Positions 26,207-33,574 of a stretch of 64,000 bases of DNA are shown here, in pieces (position 1 is the stretch's first letter; each line of letters begins with the position of its first letter). Location of the stretch: assembly GCA_963809895.1 (NCBI GenBank), contig CAWELD010000003.1, positions 2,272,001 through 2,336,000 on the forward strand, in the 5' to 3' direction. The notes under the pieces are model-generated. The model worked only from the letters and a program-made list of their open reading frames with translations. It searched no databases and was not told the origin of the DNA. The stretch comes from an uncultured Gemmatimonadales bacterium (GTDB taxonomy: Bacteria > Gemmatimonadota > Gemmatimonadetes > Longimicrobiales > Gaopeijiaceae). A program made the translations under genes and the position numbers.

Positions 26207-29200
26207 TCAGGACACCAGCCGCACCCGGATCTTGGACTCGTCGACGATGATGCGCGGACCGTCGGGGCCGAGCCTTTCGTTGAGCTGACGAATGGTGGTG
26301 TTCCACACCTGCCAGACGGCATCGATGGCCTCCTGGGCTTCGGTGTGGACCTCCCGCAGCCGCAGCATCTGCGGGTCGGTGGGCGGCGCCTCCACCCCCG
26401 AGATGGAGCGCGTCAGCGAGCGAACCTCCTCGCGCACCCGGGGACGTTGCCGGTACCCCATGTTGGGCGGGGGCCTGCGCAGCAGCGAATCGGTCACCTG
26501 CGCCATTTCGGCCCGGGCCCGCGCCACGTCGTCGCGTAGATCCGCGGCGCCCGGCAGCGCCCCGGGCTCGTCGCGGAGCGTCTCGTCGAGGGCGTCGAGC
26601 TGCTGGAGCACGCTCTCGGCCACGCCGACGGCGCCGTCCACCTGTCCCGCGAGCTCGCCCAGCGACGTCACCGCCTCGAACTGCGCGCGGTAGTCCGCGG
26701 CGGTCATCTCCACCCTGGGATCCCCGCGCACCTCCACCGACCGGGACTTCTCCCAGCCCGGCCCCACCAGCGCCACCGTGTACGTGCCCGGAACCGCCGT
26801 GGGTCCACCGCCCCCGAAGAACCCACCGCCGCCGCCCTGTCCGCCGGCCGGATCGTCGTAGCGCAGGTCCCAGGTGACCCGGTTGAGCCCCACCCTGGGC
26901 TCGCGCACCGGGAGCGTACGAACGGTGTCACCGGCCCCGTCGCGGACTTCGACCCGCAGCCCGCCGTCGGGGACCGACGCCAGGTAGAAGTTCACCATGG
27001 CGCCGTAGTCCGGGTTCGGCGCCGCGTACGCGCGCTGGCCCTGGTTGGCGTCGGTTCCGGCCATCTCCCACCGGGTCGCCCGCCGGACCGGAAAGAGATA
27101 GGGAGCCTCGTCCAGCGCACGGGGCAGATCCTGCAGCACCCTGGCGTCGTCCAGGACGTACGCGCCCCGGCCGTGGGTGCCCAGCACCAGATCGTCGTAG
27201 TCCGGCTGCATCTGGATGTCGCGCACCGAGACCGGAGGCAGATCGGCGCCTCGCAGGTCGTGCCAGCTCGAACCCCGGTCGAAGGAGACCTGGAGCCCCC
27301 TCTCCATTCCCACGTAGAGGATGTCCGGGTCGGTGAGGTCCTCGCGGATCACCTTCACGTAGTCGTCCTGGGGCAATCCCTCCGCCAGGCTCCGCCAGGT
27401 CGCGCCGTAGTCGTCGGTGACGAAGGCGCTGGGCGCGAAGTCGTCCATCTGGTGATTGTCGACGGCGATGTAGGCCCGCCCACCCTCGAAATTCGACGCG
27501 TCCACCTTGGCGATCCACGCTTCATCGCGCAGGCCGGCGCGCTTCAGGTTGTCGGTGACGTCGGTCCAGCTCTCGCCGCCGTCGCGGGTCACGTGCACCA
27601 GCCCGTCGTCGCTTCCCGTCCAGATGACGCCGGCCTCCACCGGCGACTCCTCGATGGTCAGGATGGTGGTGTGGAACTCGGCCGCCGTGTTGTCGAGATA
27701 GATCTCCCCGCCGGAATCCAGCTGCTTCTCCGGGTCGTCGGTGGTGAGGTCCGGGCTGATCACGTCCCAGGACTGGCCGAAGTCGGTGCTCCGGAAGACC
27801 ACGTTGCCGCCGAAGTACACGGTGGCGGGATCGTGGGGCGAGATGTGGATGGGCGCGTTCCAGTTGAAGCGGTACTCGTGGTTCACCATGGCGTCTCCCG
27901 CCGACCCCACGATCTTCGGGTACGGATGGATGCGCCGCGCGGCTCCGGTGCGGGTGTCCACCAGGGCGATGTTGCCGCCCTGGGAGTTGGTGTAGACCAG
28001 CCACGGCATGCCGGGCACCGACTGGCTGTAGAAGCCGTCGCCGCCGGAAAGGTTGAACCAATCGTCCTTCAGGATCCCTTCGCTGTGCAGCGAGTTGGAG
28101 GGACCGCACCAGTTGCCGTTGTCCTGCAGCCCGCCGCACACCCAGTACGGATCCCGGTCGTCGACGTCGATCTGGTAGAACTGGGACAGCGTCACGGTGT
28201 TCAGGATGTCGAAGGTCTCCCCTCCGTCCAGCGACACCTGGAATCCCCCGTCACTCCCCGAGAGGTAGCGCTGTGAATCCTGGGGATCGATCCAGAACGA
28301 CTGATGATCGCCGTGCACGTCGCGGGCGATGCGCTGAAAGGTGCGTCCGCCGTCCGTGGACTTCGACAAGCCCCCGGACAGGGTGATCAGCACCTCGGGG
28401 TTGGTGGGGTCCACCCTCAGATCCGAATAGTAGAACGGGCGGAAGTTGATGTCCCTGGAGTCGTTCACCGTGCGCCAACTCTGACCCCGGTCGTCGGAGC
28501 GCCACAGCTGACCCTGGGTGCGCGTCTCGGAGATGAGGTAGACCGTTTCCGGCGCACTCTGGGCCACCGCCACGCCGATGCGGGCCATGGGCTCGGTGGG
28601 CATCCCCGGCCGATGGGCCAGCGACTGCCAGGTCTCCCCCCCGTCGCTGCTACGCCACAGGGCGGTCTCGCCGCCACCGTCGTCGAAGCGCCAGGGCCGG
28701 CGCCGGAAGGTCCACATGCCCGCGTACAGGACGCGCGGGTTGGAGGCTTCGAGGTCCAGGTCGCTGCAGCCGGTGTCCTCGTCCACGTACAGGACCTTGT
28801 CCCAGGTCGCCCCGGCGTCGGTCGTGCGGAAGACCCCGCGTTCCGGGTTGGGTCCCCAGGCGCGGCCCAGGGCGCACACCCACGCGACATCCGGATCGTC
28901 CGGATGCACGCGGATACGCTTGATGCGCTCGGTCCCGTCCAGGCCGAGATAGCTCCAGGTGTCCCCACCGTCGGTGGATCGGTACACCCCGTTGCCGTAG
29001 GAGGAGGAGTTGCGGGGATCCCCCTCGCCGCTCCCGAGCCAGATCACGTTGGGATCGGAGGGTGCCACGGCCAGCGCCCCCACGGAGTAGACCGGCTGGT
29101 CCGTGAAGAGGGCCTCGAAGGTCGTGCCCCCGTTGCGGGTCCGGAACACGCCGCCGTCGGCACCTCCCACGTAGAAGGTGCGCGGGTCGCCCGCCACCCC

Positions 29201-29371
29201 TTCGATGGCGCTCACCCGGCCGCCCATGTTGGTGGGCCCCAGGGGACGCCACTCCAGTTGGGCCAACGCCGTGGACATGGGGTCCCGGGCATCCTGCGCC
29301 AGGACCGGCGGGGGCGAGAAGAACGCCGGAGTGAGGGTCAGGACCAAGAGAAGCCGTCGGGGAATACGCAT
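26207..29371 (-). CDS. Secreted VPS10/sortilin-like BNR-repeat beta-propeller protein
   Basis: Signal peptide, WRPLGP..GGRV, many SxDGGxTW Asp-box repeats, GGLQDNG and GTHGRG. Confidence 0.88.
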   Translation of the reverse strand: MRIPRRLLLVLTLTPAFFSPPPVLAQDARDPMSTALAQLEWRPLGPTNMGGRVSAIEGVAGDPRTFYVGGADGGVFRTRNGGTTFEALFTDQPVYSVGALAVAPSDPNVIWLGSGEGDPRNSSSYGNGVYRSTDGGDTWSYLGLDGTERIKRIRVHPDDPDVAWVCALGRAWGPNPERGVFRTTDAGATWDKVLYVDEDTGCSDLDLEASNPRVLYAGMWTFRRRPWRFDDGGGETALWRSSDGGETWQSLAHRPGMPTEPMARIGVAVAQSAPETVYLISETRTQGQLWRSDDRGQSWRTVNDSRDINFRPFYYSDLRVDPTNPEVLITLSGGLSKSTDGGRTFQRIARDVHGDHQSFWIDPQDSQRYLSGSDGGFQVSLDGGETFDILNTVTLSQFYQIDVDDRDPYWVCGGLQDNGNWCGPSNSLHSEGILKDDWFNLSGGDGFYSQSVPGMPWLVYTNSQGGNIALVDTRTGAARRIHPYPKIVGSAGDAMVNHEYRFNWNAPIHISPHDPATVYFGGNVVFRSTDFGQSWDVISPDLTTDDPEKQLDSGGEIYLDNTAAEFHTTILTIEESPVEAGVIWTGSDDGLVHVTRDGGESWTDVTDNLKRAGLRDEAWIAKVDASNFEGGRAYIAVDNHQMDDFAPSAFVTDDYGATWRSLAEGLPQDDYVKVIREDLTDPDILYVGMERGLQVSFDRGSSWHDLRGADLPPVSVRDIQMQPDYDDLVLGTHGRGAYVLDDARVLQDLPRALDEAPYLFPVRRATRWEMAGTDANQGQRAYAAPNPDYGAMVNFYLASVPDGGLRVEVRDGAGDTVRTLPVREPRVGLNRVTWDLRYDDPAGGQGGGGGFFGGGGPTAVPGTYTVALVGPGWEKSRSVEVRGDPRVEMTAADYRAQFEAVTSLGELAGQVDGAVGVAESVLQQLDALDETLRDEPGALPGAADLRDDVARARAEMAQVTDSLLRRPPPNMGYRQRPRVREEVRSLTRSISGVEAPPTDPQMLRLREVHTEAQEAIDAVWQVWNTTIRQLNERLGPDGPRIIVDESKIRVRLVS

Positions 29372-29484
29372 GACTCGGCTCCGTGCGGGGATTCGCCAGC
29401 GCGCCGTCCCGGGAGGGCGGCGCCGGAACGGAAGCAACGTGCGCCTCTCGAGCCCCGCGGGCAAATCCCGTCCTCACCAGCACG

Positions 29485-29526
29485 AGAAACGGGGCCGGCG
29501 CTCCCTGACGGGTGGCGCCGGCCCCG
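29485..29526 (-). terminator. Intrinsic terminator of the putative 6S RNA
   Basis: 12-bp stem 29490-29501/29515-29526 followed by TTTCT on the minus strand. Confidence 0.7.
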
Positions 29527-29528
29527 AA

Positions 29529-29679
29529 ACGCACCGGAGGGGTTTTATTGAAGCCCGGGCAGTATTGATGGTGACCTCCCCGCAACTTCCGTCTTCCTTC
29601 ATCGAGGCGTGACGTCCATCTCGGGAGTCAGTCCCGGCTTCTCTTGTGTTGGCTCAATAATGATGGCCCTCCGGTACGC
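29529..29679 (-). ncRNA. ssrS: Probable 6S RNA
   Basis: Rod-like self-complementarity (GCGUACCGGAGGG/CCCUCCGGUGCGU; UUAUUGAGCC/GGCUUCAAUAA; UGACUCCCG/CGGGGAGGUCA) around an A-rich bubble, with its own promoter and terminator. Ends approximate. Confidence 0.7.
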
Positions 29680-29684
29680 ACTCC

Positions 29685-29714
29685 AATATACCGGGGGGCA
29701 GGGGGGCGGGTAAA
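29685..29714 (-). promoter_or_regulatory. Sigma70-type promoter of the putative 6S RNA
   Basis: TTTACC-18 bp-TATATT on the minus strand. Confidence 0.6.
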
Positions 29715-29767
29715 GCGATCCCCCACGGATTTCAGGGGTAGCCAGGACGTCGTGTCCGCTCCCGGCG

Positions 29768-29797
29768 TTGACATTTCGCCCGGCGCGCCCCTAGCCT
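29768..29797 (+). promoter_or_regulatory. Sigma70-type promoter of the leader ORF/metal uptake operon
   Basis: TTGACA (29768-29773), 18 bp, TAGCCT (29792-29797); ATG follows 8 nt later. Confidence 0.65.
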
Positions 29798-29805
29798 GGT
29801 CGTTC

Positions 29806-30141
29806 ATGGACCACATGCGCTACAACCTGGCCCGCTGGTTGGGGATTCCCCTGACGGCGGTCCTTCTGGCCCTCACCGTGGCCCTGCCCCTCATGGAGAG
29901 CAGGGATTGGCGTGGTGGGCCCGTGCTGGAGGCCAAGCACGACCCGGCGCACTGCATCCAGGGCCACGACCACCGCCTGTGCATCCTGGGCGGGGTCCTG
30001 CGCACGCTCCTCCCGGCGAGCCGTCCAAGGCCGCTTCCCGAGACCCAGGTGGAAGGCCTGCGCGAGGCGCGCTGGGCCGAGATTCCCGGCCGCATCCTCC
30101 ACCCGCTCACCCGCTCCCGGGCCCCTCCCTTCTCGCTCTGA
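29806..30141 (+). CDS. Putative metal-sensing ribosome-arrest leader peptide (TM + His/Cys cluster + RAPP; CruR/DUF2946-like architecture)
   Basis: 111 aa: hydrophobic LARWLGIPLTAVLLALTVALPL, HDPAHCIQGHDHRLC, C-terminal RSRAPPFSL. Lies upstream of metal uptake genes. Alternative start at 29815. Confidence 0.7.
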   Translation: MDHMRYNLARWLGIPLTAVLLALTVALPLMESRDWRGGPVLEAKHDPAHCIQGHDHRLCILGGVLRTLLPASRPRPLPETQVEGLREARWAEIPGRILHPLTRSRAPPFSL

Positions 30142-30252
30142 ACCCAGCTCCATGCGCCGCCGTCTCGCCGATCCGCGGACGGGCGGTCGCCGTGCAGGCC
30201 CATGGGGGCCCTGCACGCGCTGAACCCAGAACCGAGATGTGGAGGTCTACGC

Positions 30253-31578
30253 ATGCGCGTTCCCCAGAGATGGCTCGCGGGCACCGTGGTGGTGCTCGCC
30301 GTCATCACGACGTTCCCCACCCCCGGGGCAGCCCAACAGCAGGCTGCCGATTCGGTGGCCGCCCGCCTGGCCCGCCTCCAGGCCCGGGTCGACAGCCTCG
30401 AGGCCCTCGTCCGCCGGCTCCAGGCCACCGGTCAGGAGGAGGCGGCCCAGAGCGCCGCCGAGCAACTCCGCGCCGCGGCCCGTGCCGCGGCCGCCGCGGG
30501 CGCCGCCCCCGACACCACCACCAGCGCCCAGGGAGGCCAGACCTTCGTCGGGCGCCAGCGCTCGCTTCAGGCGCTGAATCCCGAGATCAGCGCCACCGGT
30601 GATTTTCTCGTCCAGGCCGACAAGGACGACACCAACGCCGACAACTTCATCGCGCGGGAGTTCGAGTTTTCCTTCCAGGCCTCGCTGGACCCCTACTCCC
30701 GGGCCAAGATCTTCGTGAGCAACCACCGCCCAGGCGGTGAGCTGGTCCCCTTCGCCACCGATGACGGAGGCGAGGAGGAGGGCGGCACCGCCGTGGAGGA
30801 GGGCTACGTGCAGTGGGTGAACCTGCCCGGCGGAACCAGCCTCACCCTGGGACGCTTCTTCCAGCGCTTCGGCACCCTCAACCGCTGGCACGGCCACGCG
30901 CTGCCCTTCCAGACCCGCTCGCTCCCCCATCTGGCCTTCCTCGGTGAGGAGTCTCTCACCCAGACGGGAGCGTCGCTTTACTGGCTGGTCCCGGTGCACG
31001 GGGGCGGGACGTACGAGACCTGGCTCGAGGTGACCCGGTCCGAGAACGCGGCCCTCTTCGGGGACAACCACGGGCTGTCGGTCCTGGGACACGTCAACGG
31101 CTTCTGGCAGCTCACCGACGCCACCGATCTGGATGTGGGCCTCTCCTGGATCAACGGCACCCGGGAGTCCGGCGACGCCCTCATGGACCAGAATCTCTAC
31201 GGGGCGGAGATGGCCTTCACCTGGAGGCCTCCGAACCGCAGCCGCTACCGCGACTTCACCTTCCGCGGTGGCGTCATGGTCAAGGATCCGTCGTCGGCGA
31301 CCGTGAACGCGCGCAGCGCCAAGGGCGTCTGGAGCATGGCCGAGATGCGCCTGTCGCCGAGCTGGCTGGTGGGCGGACGCTACGACTGGGTCGAGAATCC
31401 GGACGACCCGGACCAGACCGCATCGCTGGTCTCGCCCACGCTCACCTGGTGGCAGAGCGAGTTCGTCCGCGTGCGCGCCGAATACGACTTCCTGCGCCGC
31501 TCCTTCGGCGAAGACACCGGCAAGCTCGTCATGCAGGTGACCTTCGCCATGGGCCCCCACAAGCACGAGAACTACTGA
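30253..31578 (+). CDS. Outer-membrane beta-barrel protein of the metal (Zn-type) uptake operon
   Basis: GGAGGT RBS, signal peptide, coiled coil, LNPEISATGDF, LNRWHGH, WWQSEFVRVRAEY and His-containing C-terminus MGPHKHENY. Confidence 0.8.
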   Translation: MRVPQRWLAGTVVVLAVITTFPTPGAAQQQAADSVAARLARLQARVDSLEALVRRLQATGQEEAAQSAAEQLRAAARAAAAAGAAPDTTTSAQGGQTFVGRQRSLQALNPEISATGDFLVQADKDDTNADNFIAREFEFSFQASLDPYSRAKIFVSNHRPGGELVPFATDDGGEEEGGTAVEEGYVQWVNLPGGTSLTLGRFFQRFGTLNRWHGHALPFQTRSLPHLAFLGEESLTQTGASLYWLVPVHGGGTYETWLEVTRSENAALFGDNHGLSVLGHVNGFWQLTDATDLDVGLSWINGTRESGDALMDQNLYGAEMAFTWRPPNRSRYRDFTFRGGVMVKDPSSATVNARSAKGVWSMAEMRLSPSWLVGGRYDWVENPDDPDQTASLVSPTLTWWQSEFVRVRAEYDFLRRSFGEDTGKLVMQVTFAMGPHKHENY

Positions 31579-31627
31579 CCCCCTGGAGGGCCCCACGGCG
31601 GGCCGTCCCAGTCACGGAGACGACATC

Positions 31628-32704
31628 ATGAAAACGCATCTCGTCACAGGTCTGGCCTTGATGATCGGCGCGCTGAGCGCTGGTCCGGCCCGGGCCGACA
31701 CGCACCCCGACGGCGACGGGCCCGCGCGCTTCGCGCCGGTGCGGGTGGTGGCCACCCTTCCGGTCTACGGAAGCATCGTCAAGGAGATCGGCGGCAACGA
31801 GGTGGAGGTGACCTCCATCGCCGACCCCGACGAGGATCCCCATTTCGTGCGGCCGAAGCCCAGCTTCGCGCTGGAGCTGCGCAGGGCCGACATGTTCATC
31901 ACCACCGGACTGGACCTGGAGCTGTGGGCTCCTTCGCTCCTGGACAAGGCGGGCAACAGCAAGGTCATCGAAGGCGGCCCGGGCTACGTCACCGCGTACA
32001 CGGGAATCAAGTTGCTGGACGTGCCCTCGGCGGTGGACCGCAGCCAGGGAGACGTGCACATCTACGGCAATCCCCACGTCCACACCGACCCGCTGCGCGC
32101 CCTCCAGGTGGCGCGCAACATCACCACCGGCCTCAACCGGGTGGCCCCCGATCGCTCCCAGACCTGGAACGACGGCCTGGCGCGTTTCCAGGATCGGATC
32201 TACCGGGCCACCTTCGGCGACCGTCTCGTGGAGCTCATCGGCGGCGAGACGCTGGAGCAGCTGGCGCTGGCGGGCAACCTGCACAGCTTCCTCGACGGCC
32301 AACAGTACGAAGGCCATCCGCTGTCGCAGGAGCTGGGTGGCTGGCTCGGCAAGATGGCGCCCTATCGGGGCCGTCACATGATCTGCTACCACAAGAACTG
32401 GGCCTACCTGCAGGAGCGCTTCGACCTCACCTGCACCGAGTACGTGGAGGCCAAGCCGGGCATCCCCCCGACACCACGCCACGTGGCGCGACTCATCGAG
32501 CTGATGCAGGCGCAGAACATCAAGGTCATCCTGGCCGCGTCGTACTTCAGCCGGAACAAGGTGGAAACCGTGGCGGACCGCGGCGGCGCGACGGCGGTCA
32601 TCGTGCCCATGGAGCCCGGCGGCAGCGTGAACACCCCCGACTACTTCTCGTTGGTGGACCACTGGGTCGATGGCCTGACCACGGCGTTCGCCGGCACCTC
32701 CTGA
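31628..32704 (+). CDS. znuA: Metal ABC transporter substrate-binding protein (ZnuA/TroA family)
   Basis: VVATLP, DPHFV, GNPHVHTDP, YHKNWAYL and EAKPGIPPTPRH. Confidence 0.88.
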   Translation: MKTHLVTGLALMIGALSAGPARADTHPDGDGPARFAPVRVVATLPVYGSIVKEIGGNEVEVTSIADPDEDPHFVRPKPSFALELRRADMFITTGLDLELWAPSLLDKAGNSKVIEGGPGYVTAYTGIKLLDVPSAVDRSQGDVHIYGNPHVHTDPLRALQVARNITTGLNRVAPDRSQTWNDGLARFQDRIYRATFGDRLVELIGGETLEQLALAGNLHSFLDGQQYEGHPLSQELGGWLGKMAPYRGRHMICYHKNWAYLQERFDLTCTEYVEAKPGIPPTPRHVARLIELMQAQNIKVILAASYFSRNKVETVADRGGATAVIVPMEPGGSVNTPDYFSLVDHWVDGLTTAFAGTS

Positions 32705-32725
32705 CCCGCTGACACGGACCGTCCC

Positions 32726-33574
32726 ATGCTCCAGCTCATGATCACCCCGTTGTGCGCGTCCATGGTCATCCTGTTGATCCACGCGTACTTCGGGCTCCAC
32801 GTCATCCAGCGGGAAGTGATCTTCGTGGACCTCGCCCTGGCCCAGATCGCGGCGCTGGGCGGCACGGTGGCCTTTCTCCTGGGATCTCAGCCGGGCTCGG
32901 CCTCGGCCTACGTCTGGAGCTTCGGCTTCACCCTTCTGGGCGCGCTCATCTTCTCGTGGACGCGCCTCGAGGACTCCCCCGTTCCCCAGGAGGCCCTCAT
33001 CGGCATCACCTACGTGGTGGCGTCGGCCGCGGTGATCCTGGTGTCGAGCTTCACCGCCGAGGGCGCCGAGCACCTGCAGGAGACGCTCACGGGATCGCTC
33101 ATCTGGGTGACCTGGCCCACGGTGTTCAAGATCGCCGCGCTCTACGCAGCCGTGGGACTGTTCCACTTCTTCCTCAGGCGGAAGTTCCTGGCCATCTCCT
33201 TCCACCCGGAGCAGGAGCGCCACATCCACCTGTGGGATTTCATCTTCTACGCCACCTTCGGGATCGTGATCACGGCGGCCGTGCAGATCGCCGGCGTGCT
33301 CATGGTGTTCAGCTCGCTGGTCATCCCGGCGGTGGTGGCCTTCTTCTACGTGCGCACCTTCCGGGCGGCCATCCTCATGGCCTTCGCCACCGGCACGGTG
33401 GCGGTCTTCCTGGGACTGGCGGTGTCGTTCAGCATGGACCTGACCACCGGACCGGTCATCGTGTGCGCCTTCGGATTCGTGCTCCTGGTGGCGCTCCTCT
33501 TCCGCAAGCGCTTCGGCGTGGTGCTCAAGGAAGGCGACCGCCGGGGCCTGACGGTGCGGGGCTTCGAGATCTGA
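32726..33574 (+). CDS. znuB: Metal ABC transporter permease (ZnuB/ABC-3 family)
   Basis: GLHVIQREVIFVDLALAQIAALG, AGVLMVFSSLVIPA and DLTTGPVIV. Confidence 0.88.
   Translation: MLQLMITPLCASMVILLIHAYFGLHVIQREVIFVDLALAQIAALGGTVAFLLGSQPGSASAYVWSFGFTLLGALIFSWTRLEDSPVPQEALIGITYVVASAAVILVSSFTAEGAEHLQETLTGSLIWVTWPTVFKIAALYAAVGLFHFFLRRKFLAISFHPEQERHIHLWDFIFYATFGIVITAAVQIAGVLMVFSSLVIPAVVAFFYVRTFRAAILMAFATGTVAVFLGLAVSFSMDLTTGPVIVCAFGFVLLVALLFRKRFGVVLKEGDRRGLTVRGFEI

Follow-up and report, generated by a model that had tools for sequence, protein, structure and literature searches.

How might a bacterium of the phylum Gemmatimonadota adjust the uptake of a metal when the first gene of the uptake operon encodes only a small protein ending in a ribosome-arrest motif? 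This question is raised by a locus in the stretch of 64,000 nucleotides (nt) that we analysed (hereafter the window), which belongs to contig CAWELD010000003.1 of an uncultured Gemmatimonadales bacterium and in which a 111-codon open reading frame (ORF) precedes genes for a porin-fold outer-membrane protein, a ZnuA-type substrate-binding protein and an ATP-binding cassette (ABC)-3 permease. From our analysis of sequences and predicted structures, this ORF is most probably a regulatory arrest leader for the porin/ZnuA/ABC-3 operon, and it probably acts as an upstream ORF (uORF) of the CruR/CutF kind through the series of steps proposed below. We file its family as working like CruR and CutF and as standing outside Pfam DUF2946. 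The parts of the leader are as follows.

29806-30141, plus strand: leader ORF, 111 codons and TGA (ATG at 29806, TGA at 30139-30141)
29839-29895, plus strand: transmembrane (TM) segment, residues 12-30, predicted N-in/C-out from the AlphaFold2 (AF2) helix, hydropathy and charge distribution
29938-29982, plus strand: His/Cys cluster HDPAHCIQGHDHRLC, residues 45-59, seen in alignments of 16 and 119 sequences
29983-30117, plus strand: spacer of 45 residues (60-104) between Cys59 and Arg105, which keeps its length while its sequence drifts
30118-30129, plus strand: putative RAPP arrest motif, residues 105-108 (CGG GCC CCT CCC), followed by F-S-L and the stop codon

The preliminary description of this DNA, made from the letters and ORFs only, had placed a hydrophobic N-terminal segment, a His/Cys cluster, a 45-residue spacer and RAPP at 30118-30129, three codons before the stop, in this 111-residue ORF, and all of these coordinates were right. 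The guanine-cytosine (GC) content by codon position is of the coding type (0.70/0.55/0.82); together with the conservation and the constant lengths described below, this rules out a chance ORF. A lone RAPP is not above chance in a GC-rich genome, with 109 RAPP occurrences in a rough proxy proteome of the source genome and 12 coding-like frames ending in R[AG]PP at most 8 residues from the stop; its significance therefore comes from conservation. The same proxy proteome has 117 occurrences of AAPP, a comparison that is not informative on RAPP depletion because non-coding frames are probably included.

A word search with the window leader by itself matched nothing but that leader. A six-frame leader search of 60 relatives, with matches that were weak but real, found an ORF of the same build at 15 of the 18 loci inspected (missing at L015, L016 and L020). 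In the 16 sequences with assigned start codons, the window's included, the leader is 105-119 amino acids (aa) long, the Cys of the H-x-H-x-x-C motif lies at residue 55-60 (once at 67), and the spacer from this Cys to the Arg measures 45 aa in 14 sequences and 46 in the other 2. The arrest motif reads RAPP in 14 of these sequences and RGPP in the other 2; 14 have a tail of two residues after PP, and 15 end at a TGA codon. Identity to the window leader is just 23-38%, and the invariant columns are M1, H54, H56, C59, R105, P107 and P108. The tallies of this search of relatives, and those given below for the phylum sample, the PF11162 genome search and the RNA gene upstream of the leader, each count one unpublished genome (G037), no sequence of which was used.

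The preliminary description had proposed collecting the regions upstream of homologues of the gene at 30253, and the syntenic leaders found there do conserve the TM segment, the His/Cys motif and RAPP. An alignment of 13 barrel proteins (50-62% identical) yielded 244 confirmed loci in species-representative genomes, the best 80 of which were examined (79 from Gemmatimonadota and one labelled 'uncultured bacterium'). At 63 of these 80 barrel loci, the upstream region holds an ORF with H.H..C, 44-46 residues, R[AGS]PP, 2-7 residues and a stop. Of these 63 leaders, 59 have a spacer of 45 aa (two have 44 and two 46); the motif is RAPP in 59, RGPP in 3 and RSPP in 1, the tail after PP is 2 aa in 56, 3 in three, 4 in three and 7 in one, and the stop is TGA in 58, TAG in 3 and TAA in 2. 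The 17 misses are of several kinds: two loci (L058 and L077) have less than 300 nt of upstream DNA, a third (L080) is described with the opposing evidence below, L086 has only a frame ending RAPPLA, and L089, L098 and L106 are second barrel copies behind a DUF1847 Cys-rich protein (Pfam was checked for L098 only), the partner copies of which (L113, L115 and L114, respectively) do carry the leader. At the remaining 10, no leader was seen upstream of the barrel gene.

The family extends well beyond these loci. Among 1.84 billion cluster representatives, a profile of the 16 leaders matches 564 at E<=1e-3, of which 239 reach E<=1e-10. Among the best 150 representatives, 145 have an RxPP ending (RAPP 138, RGPP 6, RHPP 1); the spacer is 45 aa in 117 of these 145, and HDH..C is present in 133. 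None of the 26 scored matches in a collection of 5.8 billion proteins has a Pfam domain, and all are unnamed or annotated 'hypothetical protein'. In an even sample of the phylum, 72 of 301 genomes match at E<=1e-5, and these matches come chiefly from the family to which the window belongs (36 of 47 genomes) and from one other (15 of 23). The 119 leaders that could be aligned are only 20-50% identical to that of the window, yet H54, H56, C59, R105, P107 and P108 are invariant among them. H45 and D55 are at least 90% conserved, C50, a further Cys upstream, is common without being invariant, and a PLLD/E segment after the TM helix is conserved as well.

The topology of the leader was judged from the AF2 helix, hydropathy and charge counts. 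The AF2 model, built on the 119-sequence alignment, has a helix at residues 2-36 (predicted local distance difference test score, pLDDT, 90-97), a short helix at 57-67 and otherwise coil, and no fold that would define a metal site is visible in it. In the 119 members the best 19-residue stretch has an average hydropathy of 2.14; Lys and Arg together average 3.1 ahead of the TM segment versus 1.2 in the 15 residues after it, and Asp and Glu 0.36 ahead versus 3.75 after. This charge distribution indicates an N-in/C-out orientation, in which the His/Cys cluster would be destined for the periplasm. The spacer is rich in Ala, Pro and Ser and, being mostly coil in the AF2 model, is predicted to be mostly disordered.

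This build closely recalls CruR (Bp2923) of Bordetella pertussis, the prototype of Pfam DUF2946/PF11162 (Roy et al., 2022; PMC9426467). As reported there, CruR has 45 residues between its CXXC and its RAPP motif, the insertion of five further residues impairs copper control, mutations of RAPP abolish downstream expression, and CXXC is required for the copper control; the CruR spacer likewise keeps its length while its sequence drifts, and the metal site is suggested to lie just outside the ribosomal tunnel. Arrest of CruR at RAPP was seen by toeprint, with the third and fourth RAPP codons in the P and A sites, and RAPP/RGPP motifs were reported to arrest bacterial ribosomes robustly on their own (PMC12992588). 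The window leader shares with CruR its place as first gene of a metal-uptake operon, an N-terminal export/TM signal, a long structured intergenic region and a poorly structured product, as well as the order of thiol-containing metal motif, 45 residues and RAPP at 2-3 residues from the C terminus. It differs in the motif itself, which is CXXC in CruR and here an invariant H-x-H-x-x-C with an extra His and often an extra upstream Cys; it also differs in cargo (a TonB-dependent copper receptor or a PepSY protein there; a porin, a ZnuA-type protein and an ABC-3 permease here), in the probable metal (copper there, probably zinc here), and in its setting in Gemmatimonadota with an apparently leaderless mRNA and an anti-Shine-Dalgarno (anti-SD) sequence in the RAPP codons, whereas CruR was shown to work via the termination factor Rho. 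In both the 16- and the 119-sequence alignment, HxxC occupies the position where the 45-residue ruler would set CXXC, and CXXC is absent; the preliminary description had proposed just such a variant with a His-rich site, and the invariance of H54, H56 and C59 bears it out.

Leaders with CXXC do occur in the phylum. A PF11162 search found nine CxxC-RAPP/RGPP leaders of the DUF2946 kind in Gemmatimonadota (3 of 9 over the cut-off; loci L116-L131; genomes G017, G014, G039, G038, G004, G043, G045, G051 and G024), with CxxC-to-R spacers of 43-45 aa. The genes after them encode a TonB-dependent receptor with CarboxypepD_reg in six cases, DUF5916/CBM9 in two and an ABC ATPase in one, and DUF2946 leaders head operons of copper-related genes (TonB receptor, PepSY, PCuAC, YcnI and others), whereas the leaders studied here precede a porin, ZnuA and an ABC-3 permease, apart from one in G024 and one in a published list that precede a TonB receptor. 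By their downstream genes the two leader types serve different systems, sometimes in one genome (G004 and G024 have both), and different signals are suggested by this. When aligned with hhalign, the 16 leaders match the nine CxxC-RAPP leaders over 102 columns with 95.6% probability (E 1.3e-8), a score that leans on the shared TM, low-complexity and RAPP features. Distant kinship of the two families is probable on these profiles, with convergence as the alternative.

The next step of the argument concerns the start of the transcript. A strong promoter can be read from the sequence directly ahead of the leader.

29768-29797, plus strand: predicted promoter, with -35 TTGACA at 29768-29773, an 18-nt spacer and -10 TAGCCT at 29792-29797

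Since the -10 element ends 8 nt before the ATG, the leader mRNA would be leaderless or nearly so. The arrangement of a TTGACA-like element, 16-19 nt, TAnnnT, 4-10 nt and an in-frame start recurs at 40 of the 63 leader loci, and 38 of the 40 leaders whose start codon is fixed by this pattern have the Cys at residue 58-60. A consensus promoter scan omits the leader promoter because TAGCCT fits TATAAT at just 3 of 6 positions. No palindrome or AT-rich operator is common to the leader promoters at the loci compared, in line with the preliminary description, which had seen no AT-rich Zur-type palindrome at the promoter; the spacers between -35 and -10 share no sequence, so that no operator is apparent there. 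Rfam gives no family at the gathering score anywhere in the 64-kilobase window and chance-level matches only within 29440-30270, so that no known riboswitch or leader RNA accounts for the locus. Control of the operon thus appears to be placed after transcription initiation.

How stalling on the leader could reach the porin gene is suggested by the RNA between them. The leaderless promoter and the anti-SD in the Pro codons described here go beyond the preliminary description.

30124-30140, plus strand: anti-SD strand, running from the Pro-Pro codons through the tail codons to the second base of TGA, predicted to pair with 30227-30245
30142-30252, plus strand: intergenic region of 111 nt, structured in the predicted fold
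30227-30245, plus strand: SD strand of the closing helix in the predicted fold, including the SD sequence GGAGG of the porin gene at 30241-30245

The RNA from 30094 to 30267 has a minimum free energy of -76 kcal/mol (z -2.63), with 30124-30140/30227-30245 as its closing helix. In relatives, the intergenic region typically measures 64-128 nt. At the 45 loci where an SD can be recognised and the intergenic region does not exceed 150 nt, the predicted partner of the SD clusters between nt +6 and +14 relative to the Arg codon, that is, on the Pro-Pro codons. The mean probability of SD pairing with the RAPP-to-stop segment is 0.50 at these loci versus 0.11 after dinucleotide-shuffling of the last 48 leader nt, and a pairing probability above 0.5 is found in 25 of 45 loci versus 0 controls. 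The leader forms a duplex of -22.0 kcal/mol on average with its own SD region versus -18.6 kcal/mol with those of other loci (0 of 5000 permutations as good), and a control segment 60 nt upstream in the leader averages -16.7 kcal/mol.

The codons of the motif point the same way. CUCC lies inside the Ala-Pro-Pro(+1) codons at 42 of 63 loci, where codon usage would predict about 16%. The first Pro of RAPP is encoded by CCT in 27 of 63 and by CCA in 14 of 63 (together 41 of 63), as against 8.5% and 7.9% of the Pro codons in the neighbouring barrel genes (about 16% together). The Ala is GCT in 19 of 63 and the Arg is AGA, AGG or CGA in 27 of 63. The positional sharpness of the anti-SD together with this rare-codon bias is hard to explain otherwise. 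This SD-masking design resembles that of SecM and MifM, and it is also shared with CutF, considered below.

These results bear on whether the product could simply be a working small membrane protein, for instance a periplasmic metal-handling accessory, in which RAPP serves that role or tunes translation and no sensory arrest takes place. The conserved TM helix, PLLD/E segment and His/Cys cluster, and the fixed start-to-Cys distance noted above, would all suit such a protein. Nearly half of it, however, is a spacer that is conserved in length alone and is mostly predicted coil, RAPP stands 2-3 codons from the stop in nearly all members, and the RAPP codons show RNA-level selection and are predicted to pair with the next SD; CruR, moreover, is thought to be short-lived (PMC9426467). 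We consider a working small protein quite improbable.

A second question is whether arrest would be coupled to the porin gene mainly via Rho. A stalled lead ribosome would then shield a Rho utilisation (rut) site, release would lead to termination before the porin gene, and masking of the SD would be secondary, which is compatible with the arrest leader that we favour. The precedent is CruR itself, which acts through Rho-dependent termination (PMC9426467). The RNA is C-rich and G-poor in the leader 3' part and the first 40 intergenic nt (C/G ratios of 1.47 and 1.38, compared with 0.97 in the barrel gene), no intrinsic terminator was found by a terminator scan between the leader and the porin gene, and on a leaderless mRNA the lead ribosome would trail the polymerase closely. 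The strong predicted intergenic structure is nevertheless unfavourable for Rho loading, and Rho alone leaves the position-specific anti-SD and the rare-codon bias unexplained. Rho as the main route of coupling therefore remains a tentative, less favoured option.

The kind of metal has to be read from the genes that the leader would control, which are the following.

30253-31578, plus strand: porin-fold outer-membrane protein, 441 codons, with a signal peptide, a coiled coil at the N terminus and the conserved motif GPHKHE(T/N)Y at the C terminus
31628-32704, plus strand: ZnuA-family substrate-binding protein (PF01297, E 2.3e-45)
32726-33574, plus strand: ABC-3 (ZnuB-type) permease (PF00950, E 4.2e-28)

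An outer-membrane barrel, a ZnuA-like protein and a ZnuB-like permease had been named in the preliminary description, and these assignments held, the first through its porin fold in AF2 and Foldseek and the other two through PF01297 and PF00950. The operon is thus of the uptake type, judging from the three encoded proteins. The porin-fold protein has no significant Pfam match; its AF2 model (mean pLDDT 74.5) has OmpT, OmpM1, chitoporin, OprP/OprO, OprB and DcaP as best Foldseek matches in the PDB (E ~1e-10). In the 13 aligned barrel proteins the His residues of NRWHxH and GPHKH are invariant, and this barrel family accompanies ZnuA across Gemmatimonadota (3 genomes among the 80 loci have two barrel copies); the protein may be a metal-selective outer-membrane channel. 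The closest solved relatives of the binding protein are Synechocystis ZnuA (E 1.2e-12 and 1.9e-12), followed by 8svc (the binding protein of a metal ABC transporter, without a name), AdcA, YcdH and laminin-binding zinc proteins, and Mn/Fe binders score below the zinc-type binders. H72, H150 and H255, which align with DPH, DPH and FH of Synechocystis ZnuA, are present in 8 of 8 orthologues; we take these positions to be the three zinc ligands of ZnuA. The NCBIfam equivalog scores all lie far under the cut-offs, so that metal specificity is not settled by them. The permease is the sole ABC-3 permease found in the source genome, and the next gene past it lies on the opposite strand and encodes an AP_endonuc_2-family protein (a xylose isomerase-like TIM barrel).

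Zur-repressed znuABC is the textbook control of zinc uptake. The operon shares with it a ZnuA-family binding protein and a ZnuB-type permease, and differs in the porin placed before znuA, the lack of znuC and the lack of a conserved operator as far as seen. For zinc as the sensed metal, which is favoured by the ZnuA-type binding protein with its three histidines, we see a roughly even chance from the sequences. Copper is the main alternative, on account of two family members that precede TonB-dependent receptors.

From these parts, the following mechanism is proposed. The mRNA would begin at or beside the leader ATG, and the nascent leader would insert its N-terminal helix N-in/C-out. The ribosome would stall at R105-A-P-P108, the codons of Pro107 and Pro108 occupying the P and A sites, respectively, a position taken over from the published RAPP work. 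In the free mRNA, 30124-30140 would pair with 30227-30245 and bury the porin SD, whereas a stalled ribosome would cover the entire 5' strand of this closing helix, so that the SD is freed and the operon is ON. The 45-residue ruler would set the H54/H56/C59 cluster 48-53 residues from the P site, which is either just past the exit tunnel, as the preliminary description had proposed, or where a docked translocon opens to the periplasm; since the topology is N-in/C-out and the cluster keeps its distance from the N terminus, we infer that the translocon mouth is equally possible. A metal, most likely Zn(II), bound at H54/H56/C59 together with H45 and often C50 would then relieve stalling; termination would follow 2-3 codons on, the helix would re-form and the uptake operon would be OFF. 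The C-rich 3' part of the leader could let Rho add polarity.

The direction of this response depends on the cargo: for an uptake operon, ON should mean metal shortage, from which metal binding would relieve the arrest, and we lean towards relief rather than induction. The reverse is reported for another DUF2946 member, CutF of Rhodobacter capsulatus, in which copper is said to cause stalling while the protein is secreted co-translationally, whereby a stem-loop over the next ribosome-binding site is melted (bioRxiv 10.1101/2025.02.05.636593). The window leader shares with CutF the SD-masking design and a metal site facing the periplasm, the leader being predicted N-in/C-out. If it also shared the polarity, periplasmic metal would induce or prolong stalling and the operon would be ON in metal excess. 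The two differ, however, in that CutF has a proline-rich stall motif, responds to copper and turns on a detoxifying oxidase, while the leader here has RAPP, a His-rich site and importer cargo; with importer cargo, a polarity opposite to that of CutF is expected, since induction of uptake by excess metal would be counter-productive. The robust intrinsic arrest by RAPP/RGPP (PMC12992588) also fits a ribosome that is stalled by default and released by a signal. A CutF-like polarity is accordingly unlikely in our judgement.

A more specific extension of relief by metal is that the 45-residue ruler, which would match the exit tunnel and translocon in length, keeps the cluster at the mouth of SecYEG during the stall, that periplasmic Zn(II) bound there pulls the chain and frees the ribosome from the anti-SD, and that the only ZnuB-type importer, with its dedicated porin, is under translational and not Zur control across much of Gemmatimonadota. 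We offer this extension tentatively, as something more doubtful than the leader function itself.

Pulling on a nascent chain is also the signal for a different class of arrest peptides. In SecM, MifM, ApdA, ApdP and ApcA, an arrest motif at the C terminus (RAPP in ApdA/ApdP) is combined with a localisation signal, and a downstream ribosome-binding site is unmasked. The peptides that monitor Sec/YidC differ from the leader here in that their signal is the pulling force from export and their cargo is Sec/YidC, whereas here a metal-ligand cluster is combined with metal-uptake cargo. The leader could nonetheless monitor export or insertion in their manner and not metal at all, given its N-terminal localisation signal and C-terminal RAPP, and the source genome has a peptide of this sort upstream of secD. 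Downstream of the leader, however, stand metal-uptake genes and not Sec/YidC, the invariant H-x-H-x-x-C and the 45-residue ruler would be left unexplained, and about 75 residues lie between the end of the TM segment and the arrest point, from which insertion would be complete long before stalling. Monitoring of export is the least probable of the explanations considered, and we give it very little weight.

The peptide upstream of secD is of interest in its own right. It is a second small ORF ending in RAPP in the same genome, 108 aa long (G000:C3:3084553-3084879, plus strand; locus L139:154-480), with a signal-like N terminus and the ending EARAPPA before the stop, and it is followed, after slightly more than 100 nt, by a SecD/SecDF gene (Pfam SecD_1st, SecDF_P1_head and SecD_SecF_C). 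By its sequence and position it is a candidate ApdA/ApdP-like export-monitoring arrest peptide, in which case the genome would use RAPP arrest in the classical setting too.

Several observations weigh against a metal-sensing arrest leader of the kind proposed, or against parts of it. PF11162 misses the family: the preliminary description had suggested a profile search against DUF2946, and the window protein gave no match at E<=1, 0 of 16 members scored over the gathering score (23.7 bits), only 4 of the 16 matched at E<=10 with a best E of 0.15, and a genome search with PF11162 misses the locus. Among the 78 evaluable barrel loci, 15 are without the typical leader, and the leader at L080 keeps RAPP but has Tyr replacing the Cys. 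SD/RAPP pairing fails to reach a probability of 0.5 in 20 of 45 loci, CUCC is absent from the Ala-Pro-Pro(+1) codons in 21 of 63, and the loci are mutually related, so that the statistics overstate independence. When 30112-30141 is held unpaired, to mimic the stalled ribosome, the predicted fold has the SD paired anew, with a second CCUCC near 30096-30102, which means that unmasking of the SD at the window locus may be incomplete; this second CCUCC has no counterpart in the pairing profile of the family.

Further such points concern the operon and its transcript. The metal is named from the cargo genes only, and at least two family members precede a TonB-dependent receptor (one in G024, and MBT8403099.1). 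The operon is without an ATPase gene, both in the window and in the relatives' loci examined (L022-L035), and no ZnuC-type ATPase scores above the cut-off in the genome, where the best ABC ATPase match is at C10:229937. The source genome has two Fur-family genes, which leaves some room for transcriptional Zur control. One metatranscriptome has near-identical contigs over 29841-30088 and 30131-30318 at a depth of ~6, the second bridging the leader stop into the porin gene; contigs of RNA libraries may be DNA, they show no start, end, strand or level, and their uncovered parts are uninformative.

The leader can be set beside the wider survey of Fujiwara et al. (2025; PMC12992588), who report RAPP/RGPP uORFs upstream of diverse metal genes. 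Among the enriched downstream annotations in their supplement file 8 is 'carbohydrate porin' (54 RAPP versus 5 AAPP), and row 5586 of this file, MBT8403099.1, is a clear member of the present family, N-terminally truncated and upstream of a TonB-dependent receptor. SLIV_16130 and SLIV_18480 of Streptomyces lividans, for which arrest was shown in vitro, are likewise encoded ahead of metal genes; both are small proteins, either secreted or in the membrane, that have conserved Cys/His and RAPP/RGPP at the C terminus (PMC12992588). The main text of this paper makes no mention of zinc, ZnuA, ABC transporters, porins or Gemmatimonadota, and neither the family nor the ruler nor the anti-SD is described in the parts searched, which exclude file 10 and four other supplements.

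A full-text literature search found no description of a zinc-linked arrest leader. To our knowledge, metal sensing by a nascent chain on a stalled ribosome is shown for copper only (CruR and CutF). What distinguishes the family is that it probably forms a CXXC-less, His-rich, zinc-linked branch of the RAPP metal-sensing leaders, on the evidence of its sequences, with a leaderless transcript and an anti-SD written in the arrest codons. If confirmed, nascent-chain metal sensing would be extended to a second metal, and if zinc is indeed that metal, the leader would be the first nascent peptide known to sense zinc. With more than 500 sequence clusters, the family would offer a natural series on how ligand chemistry sets specificity, and the locus would be a compact test case for the release of RAPP arrest by a small metal-induced fold, the SD/anti-SD pairing being written in the arrest codons. 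A role would also be found for an unannotated 'hypothetical protein' family and for a ZnuA-associated porin family in a little-studied phylum.

Two neighbours lie divergent from the leader on the minus strand. The first is a conserved, single-copy structured RNA of about 150 nt (29530-29678). The sole AT-rich sequence upstream of the leader, CAATAATGA, considered as a Zur box, was assigned instead to this separate conserved RNA gene, for which a promoter-like TTTACC-18-TATATT ends at 29685. A metatranscriptome contig spans exactly 29560-29669 at a depth of 653 versus ~6 on the leader, with adapter letters at both ends, and a 171-nt query of the RNA gene matches 34 of 41 relatives at 70-86% identity, mostly away from the leader. 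The fold that RNAalifold predicts on the minus strand is built from a closing stem, a stem that joins UUAUUGAGCC to GGCUUCAAUAA, a large internal loop and an apical stem, and 8 of its 44 pairs show compensatory changes. The RNA gene matches no Rfam family, the Rfam 6S model finds nothing in the genome and the candidate for the signal recognition particle RNA sits elsewhere; the gene is possibly a divergent 6S RNA. The second neighbour, at 26207-29464, encodes a Sortilin/Vps10-BNR repeat protein of 1085 aa, which is unrelated to the leader as far as seen.

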